Assembly (NCBI GenBank): GCA_963701855.1
Contig: CAVPBK010000006.1
Span: 1,344,001 to 1,408,000, forward strand
Origin: Nitrospirota bacterium
GTDB lineage: Bacteria > Nitrospirota > Nitrospiria > Nitrospirales > Nitrospiraceae
Length of the DNA stretch: 64,000 bases
Reading direction: 5' to 3'
Shown here: piece by piece, positions 9,017 through 26,123 of the stretch
Layout: every line of letters starts with the position of its first letter
How positions within the stretch are numbered: the first letter of the stretch is position 1
Notes under the pieces: model-generated
What the model was told of the DNA's origin: nothing
Databases searched by the model: none
The model's input: only the letters and a program-made list of their open reading frames with translations
Made by a program: the position numbers and the translations under genes

Positions 9017-10282
9017 CTATGAATAGAGTGTGTGCACGATTTCTGTCGTGTTGAACAGCATCGCATTCAGGCGGGTGTAGGCCGCGTGGCCGTAGTAGTG
9101 GTCGCGCACATTGGTTGATCCGGTGGAGTCTTTGTAGTCGGTGAGAATCCCCAGCCCCTCACTCGGGATACGGACGGCGCGGCGGGCACATTCCAGCCAA
9201 CGCTCGAATCCGTCGTAGGGCTCGAACAGCTCCCACACTGCTTTGTTCGCCGCTTTGGCCGCCTCGGTCGTCGGCATCGCGTCGCTCCCTGCGACTGCGA
9301 GTTCTTGCACGTAGTCGCCACCCCACGCAATTGGCATCTCCATCGTGATCTGGGGTAATTCCATTTTCGAGAGCCATGTCTTGCCGTCGGTCCGCATATT
9401 GCGGTGGTTGACGATGTGCAAGAGCTTACCGATTCCCGACAGGTCCCATCCATATCGCACCGCCGTCCCGTATGTGACGATATCCAGCGTCGCTCCATTG
9501 AGGAGGGCGCCATTCGACAGCAGCGGAGCGAGACGCTGGATCGTCAAGACGATGTCTGGTCGATTGATCTGTGAGGCAAAAGCCGACAAGAGGTCGAGCA
9601 GCCGTTTCCTGCTACTATTCGCGTTTACACATAAGAGGTTCGAGACGAGGGCGAGGACTAACCCGGCCTGCCCATGCGCTTGCACGAGGATTCGATCTCC
9701 TTGGCCCAGCTTGTAGGCCTCGACCCAGTCGCGAAGCCGACCGAGCATCAAGACAGCCGCCATGGCACGACCTAGATGATGGTGTTCACAGGACCAGAGA
9801 TCGCGGATGCAGTGGATCGGACGATCCAGGCCTTGGTTGAGCGACTGTTTCATTAGTTCCATATAGGCGTTTGTGAAATTGCCGGCATCCCCGATCTGTT
9901 CATCAAGCAATCTCTTGGTGGCGTCATCATTTTCGAGGGGTGTCTTCAACCCACCGAGAAGCGGTGAAATGCCGTTACTGCTTTCACGCATCAGGGCCAA
10001 TAAAGCATCGAGGCCTGCCACGCCGCGCGAGTAGCCACGTTTGAGACCACCCAGCTCATCCAATCGTTGCACTCCAAAGACGTCGGTCCCCATGATGGAG
10101 CCGTGCAGCAAGACGATCACGCGGACACCGGTTTGTGCGAGGCGCTTGCCGAGGGCAGCCATGGTGTCCTGTCCGGCGGGTGATTCCGATAGGTCAGTCA
10201 GGGTGACCTCCCGAATGGCGAGGCGCTCGCCGGGATTCTTTCGTGACAACTCGTCATGTTGAAAACTATTTTCGATTGGCAT
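9017..10282 (-). CDS. Hypothetical protein, alpha/beta-hydrolase-like
   Basis: 421-aa ORF; VLLHGS, LVQAHGQAGLV elbow-like motif, DIVTYGT, C-terminal GHAAY. Confidence 0.6.
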   Translation of the reverse strand: MPIENSFQHDELSRKNPGERLAIREVTLTDLSESPAGQDTMAALGKRLAQTGVRVIVLLHGSIMGTDVFGVQRLDELGGLKRGYSRGVAGLDALLALMRESSNGISPLLGGLKTPLENDDATKRLLDEQIGDAGNFTNAYMELMKQSLNQGLDRPIHCIRDLWSCEHHHLGRAMAAVLMLGRLRDWVEAYKLGQGDRILVQAHGQAGLVLALVSNLLCVNANSSRKRLLDLLSAFASQINRPDIVLTIQRLAPLLSNGALLNGATLDIVTYGTAVRYGWDLSGIGKLLHIVNHRNMRTDGKTWLSKMELPQITMEMPIAWGGDYVQELAVAGSDAMPTTEAAKAANKAVWELFEPYDGFERWLECARRAVRIPSEGLGILTDYKDSTGSTNVRDHYYGHAAYTRLNAMLFNTTEIVHTLYS

Positions 10283-10330: not shown

Positions 10331-10620
10331 GCAGGATGCTGAAAAAGCCCGCCAGCATCGTTCTCGCTTCGCTCAGAGGCTCAACGTACCGAATGAGACG
10401 CCGGAGGTCGGAAGCACTAGCGGGGCTTATCCATTCGCCAAGATCCATCGCAAGGGCGAACGGCCCACACGAAGTGCGGTTTGTACCTCCTCGCCTCTTC
10501 GCTCGCTGCGGCCTTGCTGGACGGCCTTTTTGAGCATCCTGCGAGGACTCCTTTTCTTGTCCCAGACTCGTAGGCCATCGAGGCTTTGCGATGCCGAAAT
10601 GGTTTTTCCGTAGCCTGTTA
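10331..10620 (+). mobile_element. Family 1 MITE-like element, copy B
   Basis: GCAGGATGCTGAAAAAG...CTTTTTGAGCATCCTGC (10331-10542), 60 nt, then TTTTTCCGTAGCCTGTTA; ~190 nt nearly identical to the copy at 15563. Confidence 0.85.
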
Positions 10621-10633
10621 TAGGGAAGACTGT

Positions 10634-11200
10634 TTATCGAATGGCTGTCGGGGTGGATTCTTGGTGTTCGGGTGCTGGTTTGGGCTGGATCTGGCTTTTG
10701 GGCATGATGGCGGTGGCGGTGCAGATCTTATTCTCTTCGTCGATTTGGCGATCTACGATCTTCACGCCCTGAAGATATTCCTGGACGATTTCTTCCCTGG
10801 TGAGTTCGATGTCCTGTTCCGTCTCTCGGCCTGTCCTCTCGCGAACTCGGTCGACCGTGTGCTCTTTCACCAGAATACGGATCTGTTTGGCCAAGTCGGT
10901 GCGGGCAGAGAGTTCCGACACCCGCCGGCAGATGATTGGGCCTTTCGCCATGTCCCCCTGGCCCTTGCCAATCAAGTAGAGATCGTTTGAATAGTTGTTG
11001 CGATCTTCAACCTTGTGGCGCAACCCGGACGGCACGCTCGAAGAGTTTTGTTGTCCTGTTTGCTGCTTGAGTCGATCGAAGGATTGTTCAGCGTGGCTGC
11101 GAGCATCGCCTGAGTCCGCAGCAAACGCATACAGCGGCAACAAGACCGAACAGCCGGCGGCGATCAACGCAACAATCAATCGACTGCCTCTGTTCCTCAT
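10634..11200 (-). CDS. Exported LPP20-like protein
   Basis: Signal peptide (AFA|AD); YLIGKG...ARTDLAKQI...LQGVKIVDR pattern. Confidence 0.6.
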   Translation of the reverse strand: MRNRGSRLIVALIAAGCSVLLPLYAFAADSGDARSHAEQSFDRLKQQTGQQNSSSVPSGLRHKVEDRNNYSNDLYLIGKGQGDMAKGPIICRRVSELSARTDLAKQIRILVKEHTVDRVRERTGRETEQDIELTREEIVQEYLQGVKIVDRQIDEENKICTATAIMPKSQIQPKPAPEHQESTPTAIR

Positions 11201-11203
11201 TCG

Positions 11204-12514
11204 CTACCTCCCTTGTCCTCTGCCCCCACCATCCCCTCCTCCGTGGCCTGCACTGTTGTGTCCTCCGCCACCAAATCCCCTTGGTGCAATCTGATGGGGC
11301 ACGTGTGGAACATGATGGAGGGTCGGCGGATGGACCTGATGCATCGTCGGGGGTAATTGTCTTGTCGCAGGTGGTGTGCCCGCCCCTGCCTGCGAGGGCT
11401 GTAAAAACTGCTGAAGCGTTTGACCTGACCGAGAGCCGTGAACCGGAGTCTGTTGCGAGCCGTGCGGAACAGCGCTCGGTGGCGGCAAGAAGGGGTTCAA
11501 CTGGCGGACATCGGTCAATGTTCTCGACCCCGTTGAGGGCGGCATATGATGTATCTCGCCTGGTTGATTGCCGATGTGCGGTGGTGCCGTCGGTGTGCTG
11601 TGCGTGATCTCATTCAACGTTCGTGGAACAGTCTGCGATCCCGGTGCCGGCATGATCAGATGGCGCGGCATGGTCGGTTGCCTCGTCCCCGGTGCAGGGG
11701 GAACGGGCGGTTGTGGCGGTGACGGCGGCTGTCTTGAGGTAATCACTTGTTGCGCCACATGGACATGCTGGCTTGTGGGATATAAGCCCTGTGCGACGTT
11801 CAGGAGAGCCTGGAGACGGTACAACCCCACCAAGGAAGAAGAGGAATAACCAGCCGGCGAGACGAGCACCCAATCCGTCCAGACTTGCGAGACCATGGCG
11901 TTCGATTGCACCCGATTCAAGATATCTTGGCGTTGTTGGGTCGCCTGCTGTGTTTGCTCGGCGGTCGAAGCTTGCGCCAAGGCCTGATTCGCTGCATCGA
12001 GATCCTGTTGTAGTTGATCATTTTCCTGTTGCAGTGAAACGAGTTGATGCCTGGCGTCCTCGTTCTCCCGCAAGGCCGCGATGGCCTGTCGCACTTCTTC
12101 CGTATCGATCTGGGCCACTAGATCTGTGCGGACAACAATGCTATCTCCATTGAGCGTCGTGTCGGTCTTTTGCTCCAGGACAAGGACCAAGCCAGCGGTA
12201 TAGGTCCGGATTTCGTCTTTCGTTACATCCATGCCATCCACAATTGTGATGCTTTCGAGGTAGATGGCGACCTGCTCCAGGGCATTTCGTTTGGCTGCTT
12301 CGGTGGCCAGACGGATGGCGTCTACTCTGGTGTCACGGTCTCCCATCCGATATTCACCCTGAGCGGTCACGACTCGGACCTCTGCCAGTGTTACTGTGGG
12401 CCACAAAGACAGGATGACGAACAGCGCAAGGTGGCGCAGGCTCGGCGATGGGATGAGCTGGAATACCAGTTGAGTGATCGTTTGCGGAGGAGAAATCTGT
12501 GGCATCGCCAACAC
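11204..12514 (-). CDS. Exported protein with LPP20/FlgT-N-like domain, coiled coil and Pro/His/Gly-rich tail
   Basis: Signal-like segment, then VTAQGEYRMGD...AKRNALEQ; Gln-rich heptads; low-complexity C terminus. Start may be 12505. Confidence 0.65.
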   Translation of the reverse strand: MLAMPQISPPQTITQLVFQLIPSPSLRHLALFVILSLWPTVTLAEVRVVTAQGEYRMGDRDTRVDAIRLATEAAKRNALEQVAIYLESITIVDGMDVTKDEIRTYTAGLVLVLEQKTDTTLNGDSIVVRTDLVAQIDTEEVRQAIAALRENEDARHQLVSLQQENDQLQQDLDAANQALAQASTAEQTQQATQQRQDILNRVQSNAMVSQVWTDWVLVSPAGYSSSSLVGLYRLQALLNVAQGLYPTSQHVHVAQQVITSRQPPSPPQPPVPPAPGTRQPTMPRHLIMPAPGSQTVPRTLNEITHSTPTAPPHIGNQPGEIHHMPPSTGSRTLTDVRQLNPFLPPPSAVPHGSQQTPVHGSRSGQTLQQFLQPSQAGAGTPPATRQLPPTMHQVHPPTLHHVPHVPHQIAPRGFGGGGHNSAGHGGGDGGGRGQGR

Positions 12515-12722
12515 TCTCTATATAGGACAACCGTGCCAGGGGCCAATTCGCCGGCCCCCACGGAGTTACGAATAAGCATAACACCGCATCGACTGTTGTG
12601 CCAGGAAACGTCACGCCCGCATGAATTCTAATTGATCGTGCGAGCGAGGCCTTGCCTCGCTTGCCTTGGCGGAAAACGCCATGATAGCGTAGACGTCCCC
12701 TTGGAATAGAAAGAACTGATCT

Positions 12723-13742
12723 GTGCAGATGTTAATGAGCCTTGATCGTGGGTGGTCGGTTCGGATACTGGCCGTATCTCTTTTCGCTCTCTGTCTGGTC
12801 CTTCCGAGAGACGCGGCGGTTGCCGCTGTATCGGTGCCGGCTCCCGCCTCAATGGCTCAGACCGAGCACGTTATTCTCTTTGTCCTCGAAGGATTCGGCC
12901 AAGACTCCCTGAAAGGCGGCACGATGCCGACCCTCAGCCGGTTGATCAAGGAAGGGGCGGTTACCTGGTCTGCCACGGCGGTGAAGCCTGCGTTACGGCT
13001 GCCGACCATGGCGTCATTGATTACGGGCATGCCGGTCGAGAAACACGGCATTACCTGGAACACCTTTGAGTTTAGCCGAGGTTATCCACGCGCTCCGAGC
13101 GTGTTCGACTATCTCGATCTCAGCGGGGGGCGGGACAGCGCGATTTTTCTCATGGATGAGTCGCTGTATCAGTTGGCGCGACCCGAGCCCTATACGGATT
13201 ATCAGATGTGCGGGCCACTGAAGCCTGAATGTAGTACGGATCGAATCGTGTCCTACATCCGTCAATACTTCAAGAAAGCGACCAGCGGCCATGGCTACGG
13301 GCATGCCATTCTTTCGCTGCCGCACTTCCTGGTCGTGCATCTTCCTGAGGCGGGTCGAGTAGGCGTGTCTAAGGGCTGGACTTCGAAGGAGTACCGTGAC
13401 GCGCTTCGCACAGTGGATAAGGCCATGCGCTCCGTGTTGGATATCTATCAAGAGGAGGGTCTGATCAAGCGGACAACCCTGTTCGTGACATCGCTTAGCG
13501 CCGAAGGCAGGGATGCAAACCAAGAACAGGCTGACGTGGACGTTCCGATGGTGCCATGGATTGCCTCGGGAGTGGGGATTAAACCTGGCCACGCGATTCA
13601 CCAGCCGGTTTCTATTATAGATACCGGCGCGACGGTGATGCGGACGTTGGGGTTGCAGACCCATACTGAATGGGAGAGTCGTGCCGTGGAAGAAATCTTT
13701 CAGGCTGCCTTTACCGCGGCCCCACGGGGATCTTCGGAGTAG
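12723..13742 (+). CDS. Exported alkaline phosphatase/nucleotide pyrophosphatase-fold protein, catalytic residues degenerate
   Basis: HVILFVLEG, MPTLSRLIKEG, SLITG.P.KHGI, VPWI.SG.GIK, IIDTGAT. Start may be 12735. Confidence 0.8.
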   Translation: MQMLMSLDRGWSVRILAVSLFALCLVLPRDAAVAAVSVPAPASMAQTEHVILFVLEGFGQDSLKGGTMPTLSRLIKEGAVTWSATAVKPALRLPTMASLITGMPVEKHGITWNTFEFSRGYPRAPSVFDYLDLSGGRDSAIFLMDESLYQLARPEPYTDYQMCGPLKPECSTDRIVSYIRQYFKKATSGHGYGHAILSLPHFLVVHLPEAGRVGVSKGWTSKEYRDALRTVDKAMRSVLDIYQEEGLIKRTTLFVTSLSAEGRDANQEQADVDVPMVPWIASGVGIKPGHAIHQPVSIIDTGATVMRTLGLQTHTEWESRAVEEIFQAAFTAAPRGSSE

Positions 13743-13749
13743 GTCAGCG

Positions 13750-14184
13750 ATGCAGAATGTGAAATGGTGCATAGGTTGCTGTCTACTCGGAGGGTTACTG
13801 GGCTCCGCAACGGTCATCCAGCTAGCCGCAGCCGGTCAGCCGGCTGCCTATACAAGGGAACATGCGATCACGATTGATGCGACCACCATTACTCCTCAGT
13901 CCTGGTGGCAGGTGCCCGGCGTCACCCCGTCGATTTATGCCTCGGATCCTGAGTCTCTGGATGCCTATAAGACGACCGAGTCTCGTGCCCTTAAACTGAA
14001 GCCGGGAAAATATAAATTTGTGAGCTTCACGTACGATTTTCCGTTCGCGGTGAATTTAGAGGGGAAGCTGGAGTTTGACAAGTCGCTCGACCAATGCGTG
14101 GAGGGACGAGGGACCCAGACCTTAACTGTCCGCTGCAGCCGGACCTATCCGTATAGCGGCCAGCGCGATTACCAGTATCAGTAG
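13750..14184 (+). CDS. Exported hypothetical protein
   Basis: ATG 7 nt after the upstream stop; signal-like N terminus; beta-rich, with two C-terminal Cys. Confidence 0.7.
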   Translation: MQNVKWCIGCCLLGGLLGSATVIQLAAAGQPAAYTREHAITIDATTITPQSWWQVPGVTPSIYASDPESLDAYKTTESRALKLKPGKYKFVSFTYDFPFAVNLEGKLEFDKSLDQCVEGRGTQTLTVRCSRTYPYSGQRDYQYQ

Positions 14185-14197
14185 AGGAGCGGTACCA

Positions 14198-15562
14198 ATG
14201 GCCCAGGCGCTTGACGATCTCTTAGAAGCACTCGAGGATGTCGACGACGCGACCCGCGAGGAGGCGTCCAAAGCTCTTGCCGAACTTGCTGACCCCATCA
14301 CATTGGACGCGCTTGTCGGCGCCTGCGGAGATGAGTATTGGACTGTACGCGCCCATGCAGGCTGGGGCGTGGCTAGGATCGGCGGGGCCAAGGCGGTAGA
14401 AGCGCTCATTGTCCTATTTAACGATTCCATCATGGATGTGCGAAACGATGCCGTGGCGGCCATGGCCTCGATGGGAACCGCGGTCGTCGACCGCTTGATT
14501 GTGGCATTGAAGGATGAGCGGTGGCGTGTTCGCGAACATGCCGCGAAAACCTGTGGTGAAATAAAGGACCGGAAAGCTGTCGAGGCCCTCATGTTCGTTT
14601 GTCGAGATCGTGACGGCGCCGTGAAGAGTGCAGTGGCAGAGGCGTTGGGCAAGATCGGCGATCCGAGAGCGATCCCGGCTCTGAGTAAACTCTTCCGCGA
14701 TCCTTCGAAAACGGTGCGAGAGACAGCCGGAACCGCACTCATCTCTATCGGTCAGCCTTCCGTCGATCCGCTGATCGAATGTCTCAAGGATAAAGATTTT
14801 GTGGTCCGGTGCCATGCCGCACGCGCACTCGGTGGCATGACGACCGACTATCAAATCGGCAGAACCTGGGTGCGGGACGCGAAGGTTGTCGATGTTCTGA
14901 TTGTCGCGCTGAAAGATCCGGATCGTGCCGTGCGCGAAGATGCTACGATTGCTCTGGGCCAGATCGGAGATCCACGGGCCATCGATGCCTTGATCGAGGC
15001 GATGAAGGATGGCGTGGTGAAGCGGCATGCCATTGCGTCGCTCGGCATGATCGGCGATCCTCGCGCCTTGCCTCCGGTGCTGGACGCATTGAAGGGCAAG
15101 GGTATTCGACAGGATGGGACTCCGACGCCCGGCTGTATCGTCAGCGAAGACGCCTTTATCAAGGAAGCGGCGGCGACGGCGCTCGGCCAATTCCGCGACC
15201 CGCGTGTCATTCCCGACTTGATCATGCTGTTGAAGGACGGTGTATTGCGCGAGAAGGCCAGTGCCGCCTTGGCCACCATCGGCGATACGGCGATCGAGCC
15301 ATTGATCGCCTTTCTCTATGATCCGAAAGCGTCCGAAGTCGTCGCGGAGGGGGAGCGGGTGCTCTCCTATGCGTCGGTCCGGCTCACGGCGAAAGATGCC
15401 TTGCGGCAATTGGCGCTTGAAACGCTTGAAAAGCTGGGGTGGATGCCTGCGCCGGAAGATATCACCGTCAATTCAAGCGTGGCCGACAATGCCAGAGTGG
15501 ACATGCCTCTTGGCGACACAGGCCGATTCGGTCCTTCGGGAGATTTCGCCAAAAGAGGATAA
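14198..15562 (+). CDS. HEAT (PBS-lyase-like) repeat protein 1
   Basis: Many LxDxDxxVRxxAAxALGxIGDPRA repeats; GAGGAG RBS. Confidence 0.92.
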   Translation: MAQALDDLLEALEDVDDATREEASKALAELADPITLDALVGACGDEYWTVRAHAGWGVARIGGAKAVEALIVLFNDSIMDVRNDAVAAMASMGTAVVDRLIVALKDERWRVREHAAKTCGEIKDRKAVEALMFVCRDRDGAVKSAVAEALGKIGDPRAIPALSKLFRDPSKTVRETAGTALISIGQPSVDPLIECLKDKDFVVRCHAARALGGMTTDYQIGRTWVRDAKVVDVLIVALKDPDRAVREDATIALGQIGDPRAIDALIEAMKDGVVKRHAIASLGMIGDPRALPPVLDALKGKGIRQDGTPTPGCIVSEDAFIKEAAATALGQFRDPRVIPDLIMLLKDGVLREKASAALATIGDTAIEPLIAFLYDPKASEVVAEGERVLSYASVRLTAKDALRQLALETLEKLGWMPAPEDITVNSSVADNARVDMPLGDTGRFGPSGDFAKRG

Positions 15563-15818
15563 CAGGATGCTGAAAAAGACCGCCAGCATCGTTCTCGCAT
15601 CCCTCAGAAGCTCAACGTACCGAATGAGACGCCGGAGGTCGGAAGCACTAGCGGGGCTGATCCATTCGCCAAGATCCATCGCAAGGGCGAACGGCCCACA
15701 CGAAGTGCGGTTTGTACCTCCTCACCTCTTCGCTCGCTGCGGCCTTGCTTGGGGCAAGGCGCATCTCGGCGTGCCAGGGTTGGGCGGGTTGAGGGGTCTG
15801 GCATTTTTTAGCATCCTG
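15563..15818 (+). mobile_element. Family 1 MITE-like element, copy C
   Basis: Starts directly after a TAA stop: CAGGATGCTGAAAAAG...TTTTTAGCATCCTG; near-identical to copy B plus an extra ~50-nt insert. Confidence 0.85.
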
Positions 15819-15898
15819 CTGACAGTTCAGACACTGTCATTTAAGAGGGACGTCCATTGATCCGTGAGACGTGAAACATTCTTGGGATTGAGGTTTGC

Positions 15899-16981
15899 AT
15901 GGCCGACGCAGTAGCCGAACAGATTGCTGCGCTCAAAGACAAGGATTGGGCGATTCGCGAAGAGGCTGCCATGATGCTTGGCACACTTCGGGATCCGAGG
16001 GCTGTGGCGCCGTTGGTTTCCGTGCTTCATGACGGCGATCGCGCGGTTCGCGATGCAGCGATCAGTGCGCTCTTGGCCATCGGGGAGCCGGCCATGACGA
16101 CGTTGGGCGCCTGTCTCTCGGATCCAGTGCTCACGGTTCAGGAATTGGCCTCGTCGGTGTTGGCCACCATTGCGGATGCGCGTGTGCTCGCGCCACTCGT
16201 CAAGGCGCTCGCGAGCCCCGATTGGATTGTGCGGATGCATGCCGCTAAGGCAATAGGCCGGATTCAAGACCCTGGAGCGGTGGCGCCATTGGTGCCATTG
16301 CTGCAAGACAAAGTGAAGGCCGTGCGCGAGGAGACGTCGACAGCCCTCGCGGCTATCGGGGAGGCGGCCTTGCCCTCGCTGCTCGCCGCGCTGACCCATA
16401 CTGAATGGCTGGTGCGGCTGCATGCGGTAGAGGCCTTGGGAAAAACGCGGTCGCCGGAGGCGGTGAATCCGCTCTTGTCAGTGCTCTTCAACGATCCTGA
16501 CAGGGCGGTTCGTGAAGATGCCGTCCGTGCGCTCGGCCAGATTGGTGATGCGCGCGCAGTGGAGTTTCTTGTGACGGTGATGAAAGAGCCGGGGCTGCGG
16601 CCGCTAGTGGTTGAGGCGCTGGGCCGGATCGGCGATCGCAGTGCCGTGCCGATGCTGATCAACGTGCTCAAGGGCATGGAGCGGCCGGAGGTCTCGCAGC
16701 CGCTCGATGGCTGCGGCGATCGTTGGGATGAAGAAATAGTGACGTTGAGCGTGGCAGCTAGAGCATTGGGCGCGATCCGAGACGAGGCGGCCATCCCGTC
16801 GCTCATGAAGGCGCTCCATTATACGGTGACGCGCGTGGACGCTGCCGAGGCGCTGACTCGATTCGGCAGCACCGTGATTGTGCCGTTGCTGGCACTACTG
16901 GCACGCGAGTCGGATGACAACATCCGGTACCATATCAAGGAGACGTTGGGCAGGGTGGGCTGGCGGGCGGGGCGTATCTAA
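15899..16981 (+). CDS. HEAT repeat protein 2
   Basis: Repeats such as LKDKDWAIREEAA and DPDRAVREDAVRALGQIGDARA. Confidence 0.92.
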   Translation: MADAVAEQIAALKDKDWAIREEAAMMLGTLRDPRAVAPLVSVLHDGDRAVRDAAISALLAIGEPAMTTLGACLSDPVLTVQELASSVLATIADARVLAPLVKALASPDWIVRMHAAKAIGRIQDPGAVAPLVPLLQDKVKAVREETSTALAAIGEAALPSLLAALTHTEWLVRLHAVEALGKTRSPEAVNPLLSVLFNDPDRAVREDAVRALGQIGDARAVEFLVTVMKEPGLRPLVVEALGRIGDRSAVPMLINVLKGMERPEVSQPLDGCGDRWDEEIVTLSVAARALGAIRDEAAIPSLMKALHYTVTRVDAAEALTRFGSTVIVPLLALLARESDDNIRYHIKETLGRVGWRAGRI

Positions 16982-17057
16982 CAGGCCAATGCTCAATGCT
17001 GAATATACAATTTTGAAATTATGACTCGGTGCTCACGGTGTTTTTGGTCATAGCGAC

Positions 17058-18158
17058 ATGCCAAAAGAAACGATCGAAACGCTGATTTCTGAGCTGGTCC
17101 ATGAAGAAGACTGGCGACGAATGCGGGCGACCGCAGCCTGTTTGTCGGGCGGGCCTCGCGCGGTGCAGGCGTTGGTGCAAGCGTTAGAGAAAGGATCGCC
17201 GGCGTTGAAAGCTGAGGCTGCGGCTATGTTGGCGCGTGTGAACGATCCTCAGGCCGGCGTGCCGCTAGTCGGCTTACTCCGCGACGACGATGAGGCCGTC
17301 CGCAAGGCCGGCGCGTCAGCCTTGGAACACATGGCGGGGGTGCTGGAGGAGACGACCGCGGCGGCGCTGGCCTCGCTGCTCTATGAATCGAAGGATGAGG
17401 GGATTCGTGTGGCGGCCTCGCAGTTGTTAGGGGTCATTCCGAATGCGATCGCGCCGCTCTGCGAGATGTTGACACATCAGGACCCGGAAGCACAGATCAT
17501 GGCTGCGACGATGCTGGAGCATTTGCTTGACCCCCGTTCGTCGGATTCGTTTATCAATGCGATGGGGCAGCCGGCTGTTCGCGATATTGCTGTGCGGACG
17601 CTCAAAAAGTTGAGCGCGATTCGTGAACGCATTGACGAGGTGTTCGACGAGCTTCGTGCGATCGAGGAGTTGAGCGAACGGGAAGAGGCTCGTATGAGTA
17701 CTGTGATCAATCTTCTGGCCATCGGGCGTCCGAGCGTGGAGATTTTGATCGAGTATCTGGACGATGACGATTGGCTGGTCCGTGAAGCCGCCGCCGATTT
17801 GCTGGGGAAGATCGGCGATGTCCGCGCGGTTGAGCCCTTGATGCAACGGTTGCGGGTCGATAAAGATACGGGCGTGAAGGAGCTGGCGATGAAATCATTG
17901 GGTTTGATCGGCGATGCCAGGCCGGCCCAACTCTATATCGAGGCCATTCCCATTCGACCCTTGAGGGTCTATGCCATGGAAGCTTTGGCCAAAGTGAAAG
18001 ATGTGGACGTGTTGCGGCCGTACAAAGAACTTTTCGATCGGTTGAGAACGGACCGTGACGGCCTGGTCGCGTACAACTCCGGGTTGATCGCCGACAAACT
18101 GGAGGCGCTCGATGGGACGCCTGTCGGGAGTCAGGGAGGGCAGGACGACGATGAGTGA
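17058..18158 (+). CDS. HEAT repeat protein 3
   Basis: LDDDDWLVREAAADLLGKIGDVRA and similar repeats. Confidence 0.9.
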   Translation: MPKETIETLISELVHEEDWRRMRATAACLSGGPRAVQALVQALEKGSPALKAEAAAMLARVNDPQAGVPLVGLLRDDDEAVRKAGASALEHMAGVLEETTAAALASLLYESKDEGIRVAASQLLGVIPNAIAPLCEMLTHQDPEAQIMAATMLEHLLDPRSSDSFINAMGQPAVRDIAVRTLKKLSAIRERIDEVFDELRAIEELSEREEARMSTVINLLAIGRPSVEILIEYLDDDDWLVREAAADLLGKIGDVRAVEPLMQRLRVDKDTGVKELAMKSLGLIGDARPAQLYIEAIPIRPLRVYAMEALAKVKDVDVLRPYKELFDRLRTDRDGLVAYNSGLIADKLEALDGTPVGSQGGQDDDE

Positions 18159-18915
18159 CGAGATGCAGGCTGAACGGATTGAACAATTGATCGGGGCCCT
18201 GCGGGACGACAATGATGCGCTCCGTGACCATGCAATTGCCAGTTTGAGTCAAGTGGGTGAGGAGGCGGTAGGGCCGCTGATCGGGCTGATGGCGGACGAA
18301 GATGTTCTGATTCGGGAAGCGGCGACCAGTGCCATCGTACGGATCGGTCCATCCGTCGTCGGTCCGTTGATCGAAGCGTTGGAGGACGATGAGTGGGCGA
18401 TTCGCGAGCAGGCTGCATCGGGATTGGGGAAGCTGAAGGATCCTCGGGGCGTCGATCCCCTCGTGAAGGCGCTCAAAGATAAAGACGGCGCAGTGCGAAC
18501 CGCCGCCGTGTGGGCGCTGGAGCGTGTCGGCGATGCGCGCGCCGTGCCTGGATTGGTTGAGGCGCTGACCGATCATACGGTGCATGAGGATGTGGCACGC
18601 GTGCTGAAGAAAATCGGCGATGCGCGCGCTGTGGACGCCTTGATCGATGGGTTGTTGGGTAGTAACTGGATGGTGCGGCGACATGCGGCTGAAGCCTTGG
18701 GTAAGATCGGCGATGCCCGCGGAGTCGGCCCGTTGATCGAGGCGCTCAAGGATGAAGACTGGCTTGTGCGGCGGAATGCCGCGGAGTCGCTCGCGCGGCT
18801 CGGGGCAAAGCAGGCCATCGACCCCTTGCTTCCGCTGCTTGAAGATGAGAATACGATGGTGCAGGAAACGGTCGAAGGTGTGTTGGCAAGTCTCGGATGG
18901 ATCGCGAAGCCGTAA
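18151..18915 (+). CDS. HEAT repeat protein 4
   Basis: ATG 18151 overlaps the upstream stop (ATGAGTGA); LKDEDWLVRRNAAESL repeats. Confidence 0.92.
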   Translation: MSDEMQAERIEQLIGALRDDNDALRDHAIASLSQVGEEAVGPLIGLMADEDVLIREAATSAIVRIGPSVVGPLIEALEDDEWAIREQAASGLGKLKDPRGVDPLVKALKDKDGAVRTAAVWALERVGDARAVPGLVEALTDHTVHEDVARVLKKIGDARAVDALIDGLLGSNWMVRRHAAEALGKIGDARGVGPLIEALKDEDWLVRRNAAESLARLGAKQAIDPLLPLLEDENTMVQETVEGVLASLGWIAKP

Positions 18916-18945
18916 TCTTTATTTCGATGCAAAAGGATATATCTC

Positions 18946-19656
18946 ATGGCGGATGAAGTTCCTCCAAAGCTTATTCAGATCGGTCCGAAGGGCGGCGCGA
19001 AGAAGGACGGATTCAATCTCGTCACGGAACGAGTCGTCGCGGTGAACCCTGAAGCGAAACAGCTCGAAGTCGAACTGTTGGCCTACGATGGGAAGACGGT
19101 CGTATTAGATGTGGATGACGAGGCGCTCGAAGAGCTGAAGCGCCTTAAGATAGGGGATGGCGCCACCATCCGTGTCGTCGAAGAAGGCGGGCGCCGGATC
19201 GCCAAAAGCATTCGGATTCGCGCGAAGGATCCCAATGCGGCGCGAGCCGATGCGATGCTTTTGGATCTCAAGGATAGCCATTGGCTCAACCGCAAGTATG
19301 CGGCTGAAGTGCTGGGTGAGCTGAGAGAGGTTCGCGCCATACAGCCGCTGGTCGATGCTTTGGCGGATGAAGTCGGTGATGTCCGGCAGCGCGCCTATGA
19401 TTCCTTGATCAAGATCGGCGGGCCGGCGGTGTCGGTGCTCGTGCCCTTGCTGGTGTCGGAGGAAGACGAAATCAGGCAATCTGTCACGGAAATTATCCGT
19501 AAAATCGGAAAGCCCGCTGTTGAGCCGCTGGCCACGGCGCTCGCCGAGGCCGACGACCGTCTGAAGACGAGGGTGATGAAGGTGTTGGACCGGATGGGCT
19601 ACAAGCCGAAAGTCAAAGATGAGGGCAAGGCTGTTGACGTGCCGCGACTCGCGTAA
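18946..19656 (+). CDS. HEAT repeat protein 5 with N-terminal small beta-barrel (OB-like) domain
   Basis: RVVAVNP...LKIGDGATIRV...IAKSIRI, followed by HEAT repeats. Confidence 0.85.
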   Translation: MADEVPPKLIQIGPKGGAKKDGFNLVTERVVAVNPEAKQLEVELLAYDGKTVVLDVDDEALEELKRLKIGDGATIRVVEEGGRRIAKSIRIRAKDPNAARADAMLLDLKDSHWLNRKYAAEVLGELREVRAIQPLVDALADEVGDVRQRAYDSLIKIGGPAVSVLVPLLVSEEDEIRQSVTEIIRKIGKPAVEPLATALAEADDRLKTRVMKVLDRMGYKPKVKDEGKAVDVPRLA

Positions 19657-19857
19657 CAGGCTGCGGAAAAACTAGTTTAGCATGCGAGACCTTCGTTGGT
19701 CTGCATGTCTGGCACAACAGGAATACCTTTCGCAAGATGCTCAAAAAGGCCATCCGGCAAGGCCGTAGCGAGTGAAGGGCCGAAGCGTATCCTCTGGGAT
19801 ACGTTGAGGGTCTGAACGATGCGAGCACGCTGCTGGCAGACGTTTTCAGATTCCTGC
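19654..19857 (-). mobile_element. Family 1 MITE-like element, copy D (reverse orientation)
   Basis: TAACAGGCTGCGGAAAAA, 60 nt, then GCAAGATGCTCAAAAAGG...TTTTCAGATTCCTGC; core is the reverse complement of the copy A type. Confidence 0.8.
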
Positions 19858-19868
19858 TAATGCCGCTG

Positions 19869-21194
19869 TTACTTCGCCTGGGAAGGAGATTTACTCGGTC
19901 TCCCGACCGAAATGTGACGGAAGCCAAAGGCTGCGACCCGGTCTGGTTCATAGACGTTGCGCAAGTCGAAAAAGATGGACTGGCGCAATGCGGCTTTCAG
20001 TCTGTCGAAGTCGAGGGTTCGGAACTGGTTCCATTCGGTCATGAGGATGAGCGCGTCGGCTCCCTGTGCCGACTCATAGGCGTCTTTGCAGGGAACGAGG
20101 CCCGACACGATCTGGCAGGCTTCTTCGAGCGCGGCGGGGTCATAGGCGCGAACTGTTGCGCCCTGGTTTATGAGTTCTTGCGCGATCGCCAGGGCCGGCG
20201 CATCCCGCAGGTCGTTCGTATTGGGTTTGAAGGACAGGCCCAACATCGCGAACGTCTTCCCCTTGAGTCCCCCAACCTCTTTCGTGATCTTTTCAATCAT
20301 CCGGACGCGTTGCTGTTCGTTAATAAGGGCGGCGGCGCCGGCGATTTGCATGGGATAGCCAACTCGCTCCCCCGTCTGTACAAGGGCGGCCAGATCTTTC
20401 GGAAAGCACGATCCGCCGAACCCCGGTCCTGCGTGGAGAAACTTCGATCCAATCCGGTTGTCGAGTCCCATGCCTTTCGCCACCATCTGCACGTCGGCGC
20501 CGACCCGTTCACAAACTGTCGCGATTTCGTTGATGAACGAAATTTTTGTGGCAAGGAAGGCATTAGAGGCATATTTGATCATCTCGGCAGTTGGGATGTC
20601 GGTCACAACAAACGGAGTTTCGATGAGGTATAGCGGACGATAGAGATCTTTCATGATGGCAATCGCTTGGTCGCTGTCTGCGCCTATGACGACCCGGTTC
20701 GGTCGCATGAAATCTTCGATGGCGGACCCTTCACGAAGAAACTCCGGATTAGAAACGATGTCGAATCGGAACTTGCCTGATTGATTGGCGTTGATCACTT
20801 CACGCAGTTTTGTCCCTGTTCCAACCGGAACAGTCGACTTGGTGACGATGACCTTATATCCGGTCATCGTTTTGGCGATGCCACGGCCGACTTCTTCTAC
20901 GTATGAGAGATCGGCAGATCCGTCAGGGCTCGGTGGGGTTCCAACCGCGATGAAGATGACCAGGGCCTTGTCGACGGCTTTAGCGATGTCGGTGGTAAAG
21001 CTGATCCGGTTCTCCCTGATTCCTTTGGCGACGAGCTCTGTGATCCCCGGTTCGTAGAATGGCACATCACCCTTCTCAAGCCTGGCGATCCGTTTGGCGT
21101 CGGTATCCATGCAGGTCACGTTGACCCCGAATTCCGAAAAGCAGGCACCTGTTACTAGCCCGACATAGCCGGTTCCGATCACACTGATATTCAT
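19869..21194 (-). CDS. ugd: UDP-glucose 6-dehydrogenase
   Basis: IGTGYVGL, KSTVPVGT, NPEFLREG, GFGGSCFPKD, FKPNTND.R. Confidence 0.95.
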   Translation of the reverse strand: MNISVIGTGYVGLVTGACFSEFGVNVTCMDTDAKRIARLEKGDVPFYEPGITELVAKGIRENRISFTTDIAKAVDKALVIFIAVGTPPSPDGSADLSYVEEVGRGIAKTMTGYKVIVTKSTVPVGTGTKLREVINANQSGKFRFDIVSNPEFLREGSAIEDFMRPNRVVIGADSDQAIAIMKDLYRPLYLIETPFVVTDIPTAEMIKYASNAFLATKISFINEIATVCERVGADVQMVAKGMGLDNRIGSKFLHAGPGFGGSCFPKDLAALVQTGERVGYPMQIAGAAALINEQQRVRMIEKITKEVGGLKGKTFAMLGLSFKPNTNDLRDAPALAIAQELINQGATVRAYDPAALEEACQIVSGLVPCKDAYESAQGADALILMTEWNQFRTLDFDRLKAALRQSIFFDLRNVYEPDRVAAFGFRHISVGRPSKSPSQAK

Positions 21195-21824: not shown

Positions 21825-23414
21825 GTGTCATGTTTCCGCATGGGTTTCGTGAACCGGCCAGCTCATATCCCTCAGTGGTTTCTGCTGATAACGGCGCTGG
21901 CGACCGGTGCGGTGGTGATGGCGCTCGAGATTGTGGGAAGCCGGCTCCTGGCTCCTGTCTTTGGAAACTCCCTGTTTGTCTGGGGCGCATTAATCGGAGT
22001 GATTCTTGCGGCCATGAGCAGCGGGTATGCGTTTGGAGGCTGGCTCTCGGACCGGCGTCCTGGCGCGCAGGTGTTGGCCGGTCTGCTCCTGTTCTCCGGA
22101 GCCTGGACCTTTCTGATCGCGTGGCTGGGCCAGCCGGTGCTTTTTAAGGTGGCGGGAATCATTGAGGACCCTCGGTGGGGACCCTGTGTCGCTGCGGCAC
22201 TGCTCCTGGGTCCGCCGGCTTTCGGTTTGAGCGGCGTGCTGCCGGCCCTATTGCGATTGGCCGTGTTGGATCTTGAGTATTTCGGCCGGCATACCGGTCG
22301 AATGATCGCGCTCTCGACTATGGGGAGCTTGGCGGGAACGTGGGGGACGGCATTTTTCTTTTTGTCCTGGGTCGGCAGCCAGGCGCTTGTTGCGTGGCTC
22401 GGCGCCATTCAAGTGGGGCTTGGTCTCTGGTGGTTGATCGGCAGGACATCCGTGCGGCCCTTGGTGATCGGTGTGCTTTTCTTATGTGTTGGAGGCCTGG
22501 GGGCTGGTGCGTGGTTTCCGATCCAGACGTTGAAAGATCCTGTTTATCAGGAAGACAGCCCGTACCAGCAAGTACGAATTCGCGATGACGATCTGTTTCG
22601 CTATCTTGTCTTGGACCGGACATTCCACGCAGTCATGTGGAAGGTGGATCCTGTCGCCCTATTTCTCCCCTACAGTCAACTGATGGTCGCGTCGCTGGCG
22701 TTGGTGCCAGAACCGAAACAGGGTCTGATCCTCGGCCATGGAGGCGGATCGCTGGCAAAGTGGCTTGCCCATCGATGGCCTGAACTCGAGCTGGACGTGG
22801 TTGAGTTTGATCCCACGGTCGTCCGCATGGCTGAAGAATATTTCTTCTATCAGCCGCCACCCCAGCATCATGTGCACGTCCGGGATGCTCGGGTCTTTCT
22901 GAATTCCACGGGGCAGAGGTACGATCTTATTTGGGTCGATGCGTTTGCCCGACACATGATTCCGTTTCACCTGACCACGGCGGAGTTCTTTGCGGAGCTG
23001 CGCGCCCATCTTGCACCGAACGGCATCCTGGCCGTGAATTTGGCCTCGTCGGGCGAAGGTGGAGATCTGTTGCGGGCCAATGCGGTCGTGCAGACGATGA
23101 GACGATCGTTTCCCCACATTGAGTCCTTTGCGGTCAAGGGGCCCTGGACGTCTTCTCAGGTGCGATCGGAGAATCTGATTTTTTTTGCCGGTGCGCCGCT
23201 CGAACGGCACATGTTTACGACTATTGTGGCGAATGCGAACAGATTGGTTGAGCAGCAGCGTCTTCCCTTCGAGACCATTGCCTTGTTGACTGCCCATCGG
23301 ACGCAACCCTGGGAGGCTGGTGTCGTCTTGACCGACAACTATGCGCCGTACGATCTCTTGATCGGATCCACGGCTCAAGAGGCGCAACCTGAGGCGGATA
23401 AACGATTGAAGTAA
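21825..23414 (+). CDS. Fused membrane domain/spermidine synthase-like methyltransferase
   Basis: MALEIVGSRLLAPVFG TM region; DSPYQ, LILGHGGG, VEFDP, DAF, LTDNYAP. Start may be 21840. Confidence 0.88.
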   Translation: MSCFRMGFVNRPAHIPQWFLLITALATGAVVMALEIVGSRLLAPVFGNSLFVWGALIGVILAAMSSGYAFGGWLSDRRPGAQVLAGLLLFSGAWTFLIAWLGQPVLFKVAGIIEDPRWGPCVAAALLLGPPAFGLSGVLPALLRLAVLDLEYFGRHTGRMIALSTMGSLAGTWGTAFFFLSWVGSQALVAWLGAIQVGLGLWWLIGRTSVRPLVIGVLFLCVGGLGAGAWFPIQTLKDPVYQEDSPYQQVRIRDDDLFRYLVLDRTFHAVMWKVDPVALFLPYSQLMVASLALVPEPKQGLILGHGGGSLAKWLAHRWPELELDVVEFDPTVVRMAEEYFFYQPPPQHHVHVRDARVFLNSTGQRYDLIWVDAFARHMIPFHLTTAEFFAELRAHLAPNGILAVNLASSGEGGDLLRANAVVQTMRRSFPHIESFAVKGPWTSSQVRSENLIFFAGAPLERHMFTTIVANANRLVEQQRLPFETIALLTAHRTQPWEAGVVLTDNYAPYDLLIGSTAQEAQPEADKRLK

Positions 23415-24852: not shown

Positions 24853-25353
24853 ATGTCTATGGCTACCTTGCCGGCAAGTGATCGGGGGCAGAAAAAGAAG
24901 CGCATTGTCACGCTCGCTCTCATGGCGATTTTCTTGATGAGCGCTTCATTCTTTCTCATCGATCGAAAAGAGGAAACCATCATTGTCGTCTCCTTTCCGA
25001 ACGGTCGTGAGCTCGAGGCGGAAGTGGCGGACACACCGGAGAAGTTGCTCGTCGGTCTTGCCTTTCGAGAGGCGTTGCCGGTGAATGGTGGATTGCTGTA
25101 TATCTTCGAGTCAACTGGCCAGAATCACCTCTGGACGAAGGAGTATCGGTTTCCGGTGGACATGATGTGGGTTGATGAAAGTCATCATATTGTTGGGTTG
25201 AAAGAAAATGTCGCTCCCTGCCTGGAAGCTGATTGCCCCAAGTATAGTTCCTCTCCCGAAGCGGTCCGCTATGCGATTCAAACAGAAGCGGGTTTCATCA
25301 AGCGGGAAGGGGTTACCATCGGGCTGGAGTTGAAATATACGCTTCGGATGTAA
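24853..25353 (+). CDS. DUF192 family protein
   Basis: AEVADTPE...GL.FRE.L...GLLYIF...WTK...FPVDM. Confidence 0.85.
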   Translation: MSMATLPASDRGQKKKRIVTLALMAIFLMSASFFLIDRKEETIIVVSFPNGRELEAEVADTPEKLLVGLAFREALPVNGGLLYIFESTGQNHLWTKEYRFPVDMMWVDESHHIVGLKENVAPCLEADCPKYSSSPEAVRYAIQTEAGFIKREGVTIGLELKYTLRM

Positions 25354-25402
25354 TGCGTGTTGGAGATTTTTCGAGATGCATGAGGAGAGGAGTCGGTGTA
25401 GC

Positions 25403-25723
25403 ATGCTAGAGGGGTTTCAATCTGTTGCCTTGGTCGCTGAGCTGCCACCCGGGACATCAAAAGCCGTCATGGTAAATAATCGGGAAATCGCGCTCTTCAA
25501 TATTGAAGGGAAGTATTTTGCGATTCATAATCTTTGCCCCCATGAAGGCGGTCCTTTGTGTGAAGGGCGCGTGAAGGGCTTTGTCGTAGCCTGTCCATGG
25601 CATGATTTGGCATTTGATGTTCGTAACGGGCGAGGGACGGACGGTGGTGGATATTGTGTAGGGAGTTATGATGTGCAGGTGGAAGGAGCGGAGATTTTTG
25701 TCGGGCCTCGGCGAAAATCGTAG
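25403..25723 (+). CDS. Small Rieske [2Fe-2S] ferredoxin
   Basis: CPHEGGPL...CPWH motifs. Confidence 0.9.
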   Translation: MLEGFQSVALVAELPPGTSKAVMVNNREIALFNIEGKYFAIHNLCPHEGGPLCEGRVKGFVVACPWHDLAFDVRNGRGTDGGGYCVGSYDVQVEGAEIFVGPRRKS

Positions 25724-25763
25724 CACGAACAAGTAAATCATAAGGAACGGGCTGCTGTGCCTA

Positions 25764-26123
25764 ATGACGATGAGTACGACACCTAGTCACGACCATGATG
25801 GCGCCACACAAGATGGGACCAAGGTCATTGAGACGACTCTTGAGCATCCCATACAGATTCATCTCTGGGAAGACAGGACCAGAGGGGAACTCTGGGTTCC
25901 GACCTATGACCCTACGGGTCTCGAGTTGCTGGCCGACGACTATCTTCGCATCGCCGGGAATAACGCGGTCGATAATGGGCAGCGGACTTTCGAGTTTAAA
26001 GCAGTTAAGCCGGGAACCCATCGGGTGCTGTTTGAAAAACGCATGGGGTGGAAATTCACCGCCGAAGATCGGCGCGTCTTCGACGTGATTGCCTCTGATG
26101 TTTCGTCTCGGAGAAGTGCGTAA
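25764..26123 (+). CDS. Protease inhibitor I42 (chagasin)-like protein
   Basis: I.L.E..T.G..W...GQRTFEFKAVKPG...F...W pattern. Confidence 0.65.
   Translation: MTMSTTPSHDHDGATQDGTKVIETTLEHPIQIHLWEDRTRGELWVPTYDPTGLELLADDYLRIAGNNAVDNGQRTFEFKAVKPGTHRVLFEKRMGWKFTAEDRRVFDVIASDVSSRRSA

Follow-up and report, generated by a model that had tools for sequence, protein, structure and literature searches.

Do five divergent HEAT-repeat paralogues encoded side by side in a bacterial genome act as one assembly, and do the two proteins encoded just upstream of them belong to it? The question is raised by a 64,000-nt stretch of contig CAVPBK010000006.1 (assembly GCA_963701855.1) from a bacterium of the Nitrospiraceae, whose genome (G000) measures 4.30 Mb and is 97% complete; we call the whole of this stretch the window, and all coordinates given without a contig or locus prefix are window positions. 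The locus comprises seven genes, g1 to g7, and one repeat element:

12723–13742, + strand: g1, putatively exported pseudo-enzyme of NPP/alkaline-phosphatase fold (PF01663, orthologue alignment, hydrophobic N terminus)
13750–14184, + strand: g2, small, putatively exported beta-sandwich protein with a conserved Cys pair (structure model)
14198–15562, + strand: g3, 454-aa HEAT paralogue (HEAT_2)
15563–15898, no strand: repeat element filling the g3–g4 gap (matches in the same genome)
15899–16981, + strand: g4, 360-aa HEAT paralogue (HEAT_2)
17058–18158, + strand: g5, 366-aa HEAT paralogue with atypical repeats (HEAT_2)
18151–18915, + strand: g6, 254-aa HEAT paralogue (HEAT_2)
18946–19656, + strand: g7, 236 aa, N-terminal beta domain followed by about four HEAT repeats (HEAT_2)

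The original prediction, made from this sequence, saw in these genes a hetero-oligomeric solenoid complex linked to a periplasmic partner. This interpretation is partly supported overall: the antiquity of the paralogues and their togetherness stood up to comparison across relatives, whereas the seven-gene unit and the periplasmic link did not. The reading that we tentatively favor is that g3–g7 assemble in the cytoplasm into a hetero-oligomeric solenoid that serves as scaffold or adaptor for a client not encoded here. In it, the five PBS-type HEAT paralogues would act as a single alpha-solenoid assembly in which each fills its own position, g7 would contribute a small head domain resembling a beta-barrel, and a client encoded elsewhere would be held or chaperoned. 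The putatively exported g1 and g2, which would have come to share a transcription unit with g3 in just two families, would be lineage-specific accessories at most.

The five HEAT paralogues and the order of their genes

All five proteins match the Pfam family HEAT_2 (E = 4.3e-72 for g3, 2.4e-68 for g4, 2.8e-30 for g5, 3.6e-47 for g6 and 4.5e-14 for g7) and the PBS-lyase HEAT-like family PF03130 (E = 9.9e-51, 4.6e-39, 4.4e-10, 9.7e-37 and 6.9e-07, respectively). The HEAT match of g7 is limited to residues 108–182; residues 1–100 make up a separate domain, which matched no PDB sequence and for which the ESM Atlas gives, as leads only, the small beta-barrel families DUF5666 and DUF1344 at 0.77. 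In g3, long loops and a Cys–His pair are invariant, and the C-terminal tail GRFGxxGD is conserved. Since none of the five carries a signal peptide, they are taken to be cytoplasmic; their 19-residue hydrophobicity maximum does not exceed 1.71, and the cluster encodes no membrane-spanning component.

The paralogues resemble one another weakly (29–37% identity, with 42% over a single 52-residue match between g5 and g7), while orthologues are 54–95% identical across 13 genera of the Nitrospiraceae (f1) and 48–71% identical between this family and its sister family (f2). Because orthologues are far more alike than paralogues, each paralogue represents an old, separately constrained lineage. Between the two families, identity is about 70% for g7, 64–66% for g3, 63% for g5, 63% for g6 and 48–49% for g4, to be compared with 70–75% for NusA and 36–43% for PolA; mean column identity is 81% for g7, 80% for g3, 76% for g6 and 74% for g5. 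Conservation is thus highest in g7, second highest in g3 and lowest in g4.

As the prediction had stated, the seven genes are co-directional and mostly tightly spaced: the list of open reading frames gives spacings of 7, 13, 336, 76, −8 and 30 nt from g1 to g7. Nor are they scattered in relatives. The window order recurs in 15 of 15 whole Nitrospiraceae loci from 13 genera (a further locus, the sixteenth, is truncated where its contig stops) and in 52 of the 54 closer loci that have enough flanking sequence. The remaining two (L057 and L114, on long contigs of metagenome-assembled genomes) hold all seven genes but with apparent frameshifts, which split g4 in both and also affect g1 and g3 in L114; these could be assembly errors or real pseudogenes.

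Outside the Nitrospiraceae, the cluster is arranged differently. In genus g40 of the sister family, g1, g2 and g3 stand together beside u3, a gene that is divergently transcribed from g1 (described below), whereas an intact g4–g7 block, with the UDP-glucose/GDP-mannose dehydrogenase gene that follows g7, is found in all 10 genomes at a distance of 6.7–839 kb. In the third family of the order (f27), a tight HEAT block in the order g4-g3-g5-g6-g7 was found in two of two loci. Every gene of this block matches its own paralogue best, and the convergent dehydrogenase gene again follows; g1, g2 and the block are on three different contigs, with g2 flanked by an ABC ATPase gene on one side and by dihydroorotate dehydrogenase/FtsX genes on the other. 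In every genome examined, including five of five from the sister family, g4–g7 are unbroken. Together, the block of the third family and the split in g40 indicate a core of five HEAT genes to which g1 and g2 (and u3) are joined, through g3, only in the Nitrospiraceae and the sister family. Judged by gene order, then, the selected unit is the five HEAT genes. The dehydrogenase gene adjoins the g7 block in all three families, even where g4–g7 is distant from g1–g3 in the sister family. Within the unit, the end of g5 runs 8 nt into the beginning of g6 in 18 of 25 loci, which fits translational coupling.

Among the genomes surveyed, the set is confined to three families of the order to which Nitrospira belongs and is missing from the fourth. 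In the survey of the order (E ≤1e-40; 352 genomes at least 90% complete, including the unpublished G006 and G076), a g7 orthologue was found in 340 genomes: 236/243 Nitrospiraceae, 89/91 of the sister family, 14/14 of the third family and 0/3 of the fourth (f28). Homologues of g1, g2 and g3 were each present in three of three genomes of the third family and in neither of two of the fourth. At E ≤1e-25 in a sample of the phylum, g2 and g5 were each detected in 28/28 Nitrospiraceae and 12/12 sister-family genomes, and each in none of 160 genomes from 24 other families of the phylum. A further sample of the family (which includes the unpublished G053, G006 and G076) yielded g2 in 113 of 121 genomes, and in 84 of the 86 of high quality. 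On these counts, the phyletic pattern across the four families is all-or-none. In a scan of 185,579 species (one genome each), 403 stretches encode a g7 relative, and the best 80 of these 403 all come from records whose names begin with Nitrospir, save two titled 'uncultured bacterium'. The g7-profile search of a representative library was flooded by giant HEAT proteins and speaks neither for nor against distant orthologues beyond the order; among the 150 matches listed, five cover the N-terminal domain, P0145 over its full length and the rest as fragments.

Within the Nitrospiraceae, only the g3|g4 junction varies: its length in 60 loci lies between 19 nt (19–33 nt in 11 of them) and 1.7 kb, and a second set of loci extends this to about 2 kb; over all relatives, spacers of 19 nt up to 5.4 kb occur. 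The 336-nt gap of the window consists of a dispersed element, with 55 matches of 74–100% identity listed in the same genome, which bears out the earlier view that a repeat fills this gap. A second copy, at 10332–10518 (C6:1354332-1354518), is 97% identical to element positions 1–187, and matches are listed at 53 other places in the genome. The element is modular (positions 1–62, about 158–187 and about 158–257 recur apart or combined), and no Rfam family corresponds to it; across window positions 12000–20500 as a whole, Rfam likewise matched no family.

Two kinds of insert were seen at this junction in relatives. In 4 of 15 loci, a gene on the opposite strand lies exactly at g3|g4; it encodes an exported protein of 416–444 aa that is 70–84% identical between loci. 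In the genome of the window, this beta-propeller-like gene lies on a different contig (C1:40845-42020), and, to judge from its position in the published table, NITMOv2_4499 of Nitrospira moscoviensis is the same junction gene. In genus g41 of the sister family, an insert of 4.4–5.4 kb parts g1-g2-g3 from g4–g7; it encodes a BCCT transporter and a two-domain methyltransferase, and looks like an osmolyte module. The inserts lie as follows:

L013:7101-8351, L018:12330-13607, L024:11911-13164 and L025:11878-13212, opposite strand: exported-protein gene, with a weak LVIVD/beta-propeller hint
L031:4807-8417 and L032:4913-8443: g41 insert, BCCT betaine-type transporter and methyltransferase

A similar methyltransferase follows g3 in G251 (L033:11902-13548).

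HEAT frames are also found away from the cluster. The genome of the window has 34 HEAT_2 matches, 16 of which lie outside the cluster and correspond to about nine further HEAT frames (a divergent pair at C4:201119-203567, and seven other places), and the proteome table of Nitrospira marina in PMC8115632 contains 12 HEAT proteins. HEAT proteins seem to be expanded in this lineage.

Expression in cultured Nitrospira

The presumed orthologues in N. moscoviensis are NITMOv2_4495–4498 and 4500–4502, five of which bear the RefSeq name 'HEAT repeat domain-containing protein'. Published tables give RNA levels for about 4,391 coding sequences (PMC6606698, Table S1; reads per kilobase per million, RPKM) and protein ranks for about 2,789 detected proteins (PMC8407350, file 6), with the following values:

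g7 (NITMOv2_4495, 708 nt): mean RPKM 232, RNA rank 1071; proteome rank 113
g6 (NITMOv2_4496, 765 nt): mean RPKM 275, RNA rank 876; proteome rank 532
g5 (NITMOv2_4497, 1098 nt): mean RPKM 264, RNA rank 917; proteome rank 1083
g4 (NITMOv2_4498, 1182 nt): mean RPKM 338, RNA rank 697; proteome rank 2380 (7 spectra)
g3 (NITMOv2_4500, 1365 nt): mean RPKM 752, RNA rank 207; proteome rank 276
g2 (NITMOv2_4501, 438 nt): mean RPKM 199, RNA rank 1262; proteome rank 1245
g1 (NITMOv2_4502, 1029 nt): mean RPKM 497, RNA rank 389; proteome rank 678
u3: proteome rank 1018

According to these tables, RNA of g3–g7 is 2.4–7.7 times the median (PMC6606698), and the cluster genes are constant over the time course. 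Four of the five HEAT proteins are in the upper 40% of the proteins detected and two in the top tenth, g7 being the most abundant of the five and g4 the least.

A comparable set was recognized in N. marina (PMC8115632, file 4): four consecutive IMG genes encoding proteins of 222, 256, 363 and 381 aa, and a 462-aa protein six genes on, all of them detected. The normalized spectral abundance factors given there are 0.11–0.20 for g7, 0.12–0.15 for g6 and g3, 0.08–0.105 for g5 and 0.013–0.038 for g4, and the file records no significant response of the HEAT set to low oxygen. In the published tables for these two strains, the five HEAT genes are thus expressed constitutively, at a moderate to high level. 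In favor of the prediction, every member is expressed, as RNA and protein in N. moscoviensis and as protein in N. marina; against it, the protein abundances are far from equimolar, and g4 is low in both species.

For the window itself, public sequencing runs considered as RNA evidence covered at most a 0.12 share of the stretch, and a scan found one promoter-like site (3.1 expected) and six terminator-like sites (5.5 expected).

The upstream pair and the surroundings of the cluster

The g1 protein matches PF01663 (type I phosphodiesterase/NPP; E = 5.5e-21, 76 bits for a cut-off of 23), more weakly the sulfatases, and, among PDB chains, Xanthomonas NPP (E = 1.6e-13). In the alignment with Xanthomonas NPP, g1 of the window has, at the positions we take to be catalytic, E for the metal-binding Asp, R for the nucleophile Thr, and P/R and L/S for the subsequent Asp/His ligands. 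Loss of the metal ligands extends to 21 of 21 aligned orthologues, E56 being invariant, and the place of the nucleophile is occupied by Arg in the Nitrospiraceae and by Thr in three of four sister-family sequences. By sequence, g1 therefore belongs to the fold family of the NPP superfamily, but it lacks the catalytic nucleophile and the two-metal ligand set. It is most likely a binding protein without an enzyme role, as far as these alignments tell. Given the loss of ligands across the 21 orthologues and the hydrophobic N terminus, the earlier description of g1 as an exported pseudo-phosphatase was a fair one.

Neither Pfam nor NCBIfam matched g2. Its predicted structure (pLDDT 80) is a beta-sandwich, for which fold searches returned generic Ig/CnaB/CBM-like matches only (best Foldseek E 8e-3, Z ≤5.8). 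It has 690 homologues, whose names, where shown, mostly begin with Nitrospir; one of the 12 named rows is from Terriglobales. A fusion of g2 with g3, hinted at by long open frames, was rejected on account of a TAG stop between the two genes in G117.

The prediction had further placed signal-like N termini on the first two products and none on the HEAT proteins. Indeed, the maximum of the Kyte–Doolittle index over 15 N-terminal residues is 2.65 for g1 and 1.84 for g2, compared with 0.70–1.31 for g3–g7. An invariant Cys pair is present in the alignments of g1 and of g2, while g3–g7 have neither a hydrophobic N terminus nor such a pair. The hydrophobic N termini, together with the Cys pairs, fit export of g1 and g2.

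On the other side of g1 lies u3, and beyond g7 the dehydrogenase gene; the features that flank the cluster are:

9017–10282, − strand: u3, 421-aa alpha/beta-hydrolase-fold protein, predicted cytoplasmic, divergent from g1
10332–10518, no strand: second copy of the dispersed element of the g3–g4 gap
19869–21194, − strand: UDP-glucose/GDP-mannose dehydrogenase (Pfam), convergent with g7

The u3 gene adjoins g1, in divergent orientation, in the Nitrospiraceae and the sister family, and was not found in genomes of the third and fourth families. Its product has no Pfam match, and 22 orthologues have a mean column identity of 66% with dozens of invariant polar residues. The predicted structure (pLDDT 72) has an alpha/beta-hydrolase fold: the top 50 matches by VIA-align are nearly all lipases, esterases and thioesterases (Z 8.8–11.9, 150–216 residues aligned), Foldseek returned nothing at E ≤0.001, and the ESM Atlas gives lipase-like families at 0.86–0.89, as leads only. 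Strand 197–203 is followed by the motif A-H-G-Q-A-G, which does not contain the Ser of G-x-S-x-G; Gly204, invariant among the 22 sequences, occupies the place expected for the nucleophile. The protein thus appears to lack a Ser nucleophile, the placement of the elbow being a reading of the structure model.

Between u3 and g1 are a gene for an LPP20-like lipoprotein (10634–11200, − strand) and one for an exported protein with a long Pro/Gln-rich tail (11204–12514, − strand). Both are absent from 5 of 16 Nitrospiraceae loci and from all sister-family loci, and both are poorly expressed in N. moscoviensis according to the table in PMC6606698 (RPKM about 45).

The window as a whole is a housekeeping region, with polA, rimP-nusA-infB-truB-pnp, mutS and amino-acid biosynthesis genes. 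It also holds a 227-aa frame for a retropepsin-like aspartyl protease (1388–2071, + strand; PF13975, E = 2.6e-16) that adjoins an HhH-GPD glycosylase gene; a series of small genes for DUF192, Rieske [2Fe-2S] and chagasin-family peptidase inhibitor I42 proteins (24853–26123, + strand), with a class IV aminotransferase gene downstream of them; and one encoding a 529-aa protein with a hydrophobic N-terminal half and a spermidine-synthase-like methyltransferase domain (21825–23414, + strand), which is syntenic with the cluster in the Nitrospiraceae.

Competing readings and known systems

That the HEAT genes are kept together through rearrangement, that g5 and g6 overlap, that the set is present or absent as a whole and that its members are expressed all support a shared function for the five. 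Physical association and a scaffold function are what we infer beyond this, and several observations weigh against them. The flanks in the Nitrospiraceae (u3 and the UDP-glucose dehydrogenase, CBS and spermidine-synthase-like genes) are syntenic too, so that synteny in this family is, by itself, weak evidence on function. The separation of g3 from g4–g7 in genus g40 shows that the adjacency of g3 to the others is dispensable. Protein levels are unequal in the available tables, with normalized spectral counts from 184 for g4 to 12,381 for g7 in N. moscoviensis (PMC8407350) and with g4 at 4–10 times below the other four in N. marina (PMC8115632); the orthology to g1–g7 presumed in both species is itself drawn from gene order, strand, length and product name. 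In a mirror-tree analysis of 11 taxa, residual correlations among cluster genes were 0.11–0.78, compared with 0.30–0.69 with the spermidine-synthase-like neighbor, i.e. no co-evolution was detected beyond that with an unrelated neighbor. Finally, HEAT proteins usually bind clients that are not HEAT proteins, and tandem paralogues may simply reflect their origin by duplication.

An alternative is that the five proteins are independent, each with a client of its own, whether as separate adaptors or as cofactor chaperones resembling E/F-type lyases, and have remained neighbors after tandem duplication in a stable housekeeping region. The unequal protein levels, the separability of g3, the lack of a co-evolution signal and the syntenic flanks all agree with independence, as do the nine or so further HEAT frames elsewhere in the genome. 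We nevertheless regard it as somewhat less likely than joint action: the block is contiguous despite the swap of g3 and g4 between families, the g5/g6 overlap is conserved, the members are jointly present or jointly absent in the four families, and RNA levels of g4–g7 are similar in the published table.

A broader possibility, closest to the original prediction, is that all seven genes form one system, in which a solenoid complex is coupled across the membrane to g1 and g2, for instance as a cofactor-insertion or chaperone machine. The tight spacing of g1-g2-g3 and their staying together in the Nitrospiraceae and the sister family, even in g40, speak for it, as does the detection of g1 and g2 in the expression tables. 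The co-presence of g1, g2 and the HEAT genes in three families and their co-absence from the fourth point the same way, although this co-absence is a single event seen in two to three genomes. However, g1, g2 and the HEAT block occupy three contigs in the third family, g1-g2-g3 part from g4–g7 in g40, the g3|g4 junction accepts insertions, and no component of the cluster would span the membrane. The seven-gene unit is therefore not upheld, and the periplasmic link is weak and specific to certain lineages. We consider the seven-gene system improbable, and a trans-envelope machine could exist solely as a lineage-specific elaboration, to which we likewise give little credence.

Nitrospira and its relatives oxidize nitrite in soils, waters and treatment plants, and for much of their core genome the annotation still reads 'conserved protein of unknown function'; to our knowledge, a stable set of five HEAT paralogues is unusual for bacteria. 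It is conceivable, as a long shot, that this abundant solenoid machine of the Nitrospira order is needed for a trait that defines these nitrite oxidizers, e.g. in maturing or targeting their periplasmic nitrite oxidoreductase or their unusual terminal oxidase, and has become coupled to the exported pair in the Nitrospiraceae and the sister family; the window annotation has no nitrite-oxidoreductase gene near the cluster. Finding the client could expose an assembly step specific to this lineage of nitrite oxidizers, whereas proteins acting singly would amount to an ordinary expanded repeat family. With the unit defined as five HEAT genes, their locus tags are known in a culturable strain, N. 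moscoviensis.

No paper on the cluster was found among the titles and abstract beginnings searched (subscription journals being outside that scope), and no match to a characterized operon emerged. A reading as a defense system was set aside: PADLOC gave only generic repeat-level rows for g3–g7 (HEAT-ARM_XIII, HEAT_CxxC_PDDEXK and WGR_XIII) and none for g1, g2 or u3.

That the proteins are known HEAT-fold enzymes, either bilin lyases of the CpcE/F and NblB kind or a di-iron hydroxylase like DOHH, is hardly credible, even though CpcE, NblB and CpcF are the best NCBIfam rows for the cluster and CpcE/F (5n3u) and DOHH (4d4z) are found by PDB profile matches (E 1e-8 to 1e-11), since the scores are far below the cut-offs and the likeness is at the level of the repeat. 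The cyanobacterial E/F-type bilin lyases share with g3–g7 the PBS-lyase HEAT-like repeat type (PF03130) and the adjacency of paralogous genes. CpcE and CpcF act as a heterodimer. These lyases are two paralogues where there are five here, and the host is a non-photosynthetic nitrite oxidizer. Scores reach about a third of the cut-offs (121.3 of 330 for CpcE, 108.3 of 300 for NblB and 72 of 220 for CpcF), and the genome has no match to the phycobiliprotein family PF00502, for which a Synechococcus control was positive; the absence of phycobiliprotein genes noted earlier thus extends genome-wide, and bilin lyases were ruled out on both counts. DOHH, which we take to carry four His-Glu iron motifs in symmetric HEAT repeats, was ruled out as well, as the His-Glu dipeptides number 0 in g3, 0 in g4, 1 in g5, 1 in g6 and 0 in g7.

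Among solved structures, the sequences nearest to the five belong to designed alphaRep proteins and to small HEAT proteins without an assigned function. The likeness of DOHH and of the small archaeal or bacterial PBS-HEAT proteins MTH187, YibA and 6veh to g3–g7 lies in the repeat, and the last three are single proteins, unlike the conserved five-gene set. NPP, of the alkaline-phosphatase superfamily, resembles g1 at the family level but has the metal ligands that g1 lacks. As for eukaryotic multi-HEAT assemblies, the Pfam and PDB rows obtained (Cnd1, Adaptin_N and INTS4) are weak, all below cut-offs, and reflect a generic likeness of repeats that does not support homology of the assemblies. 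What g3–g7 would have in common with the PP2A A subunit, the condensin HEAT subunits, the adaptins and Integrator 4 is the idea of a solenoid that serves as a scaffold.

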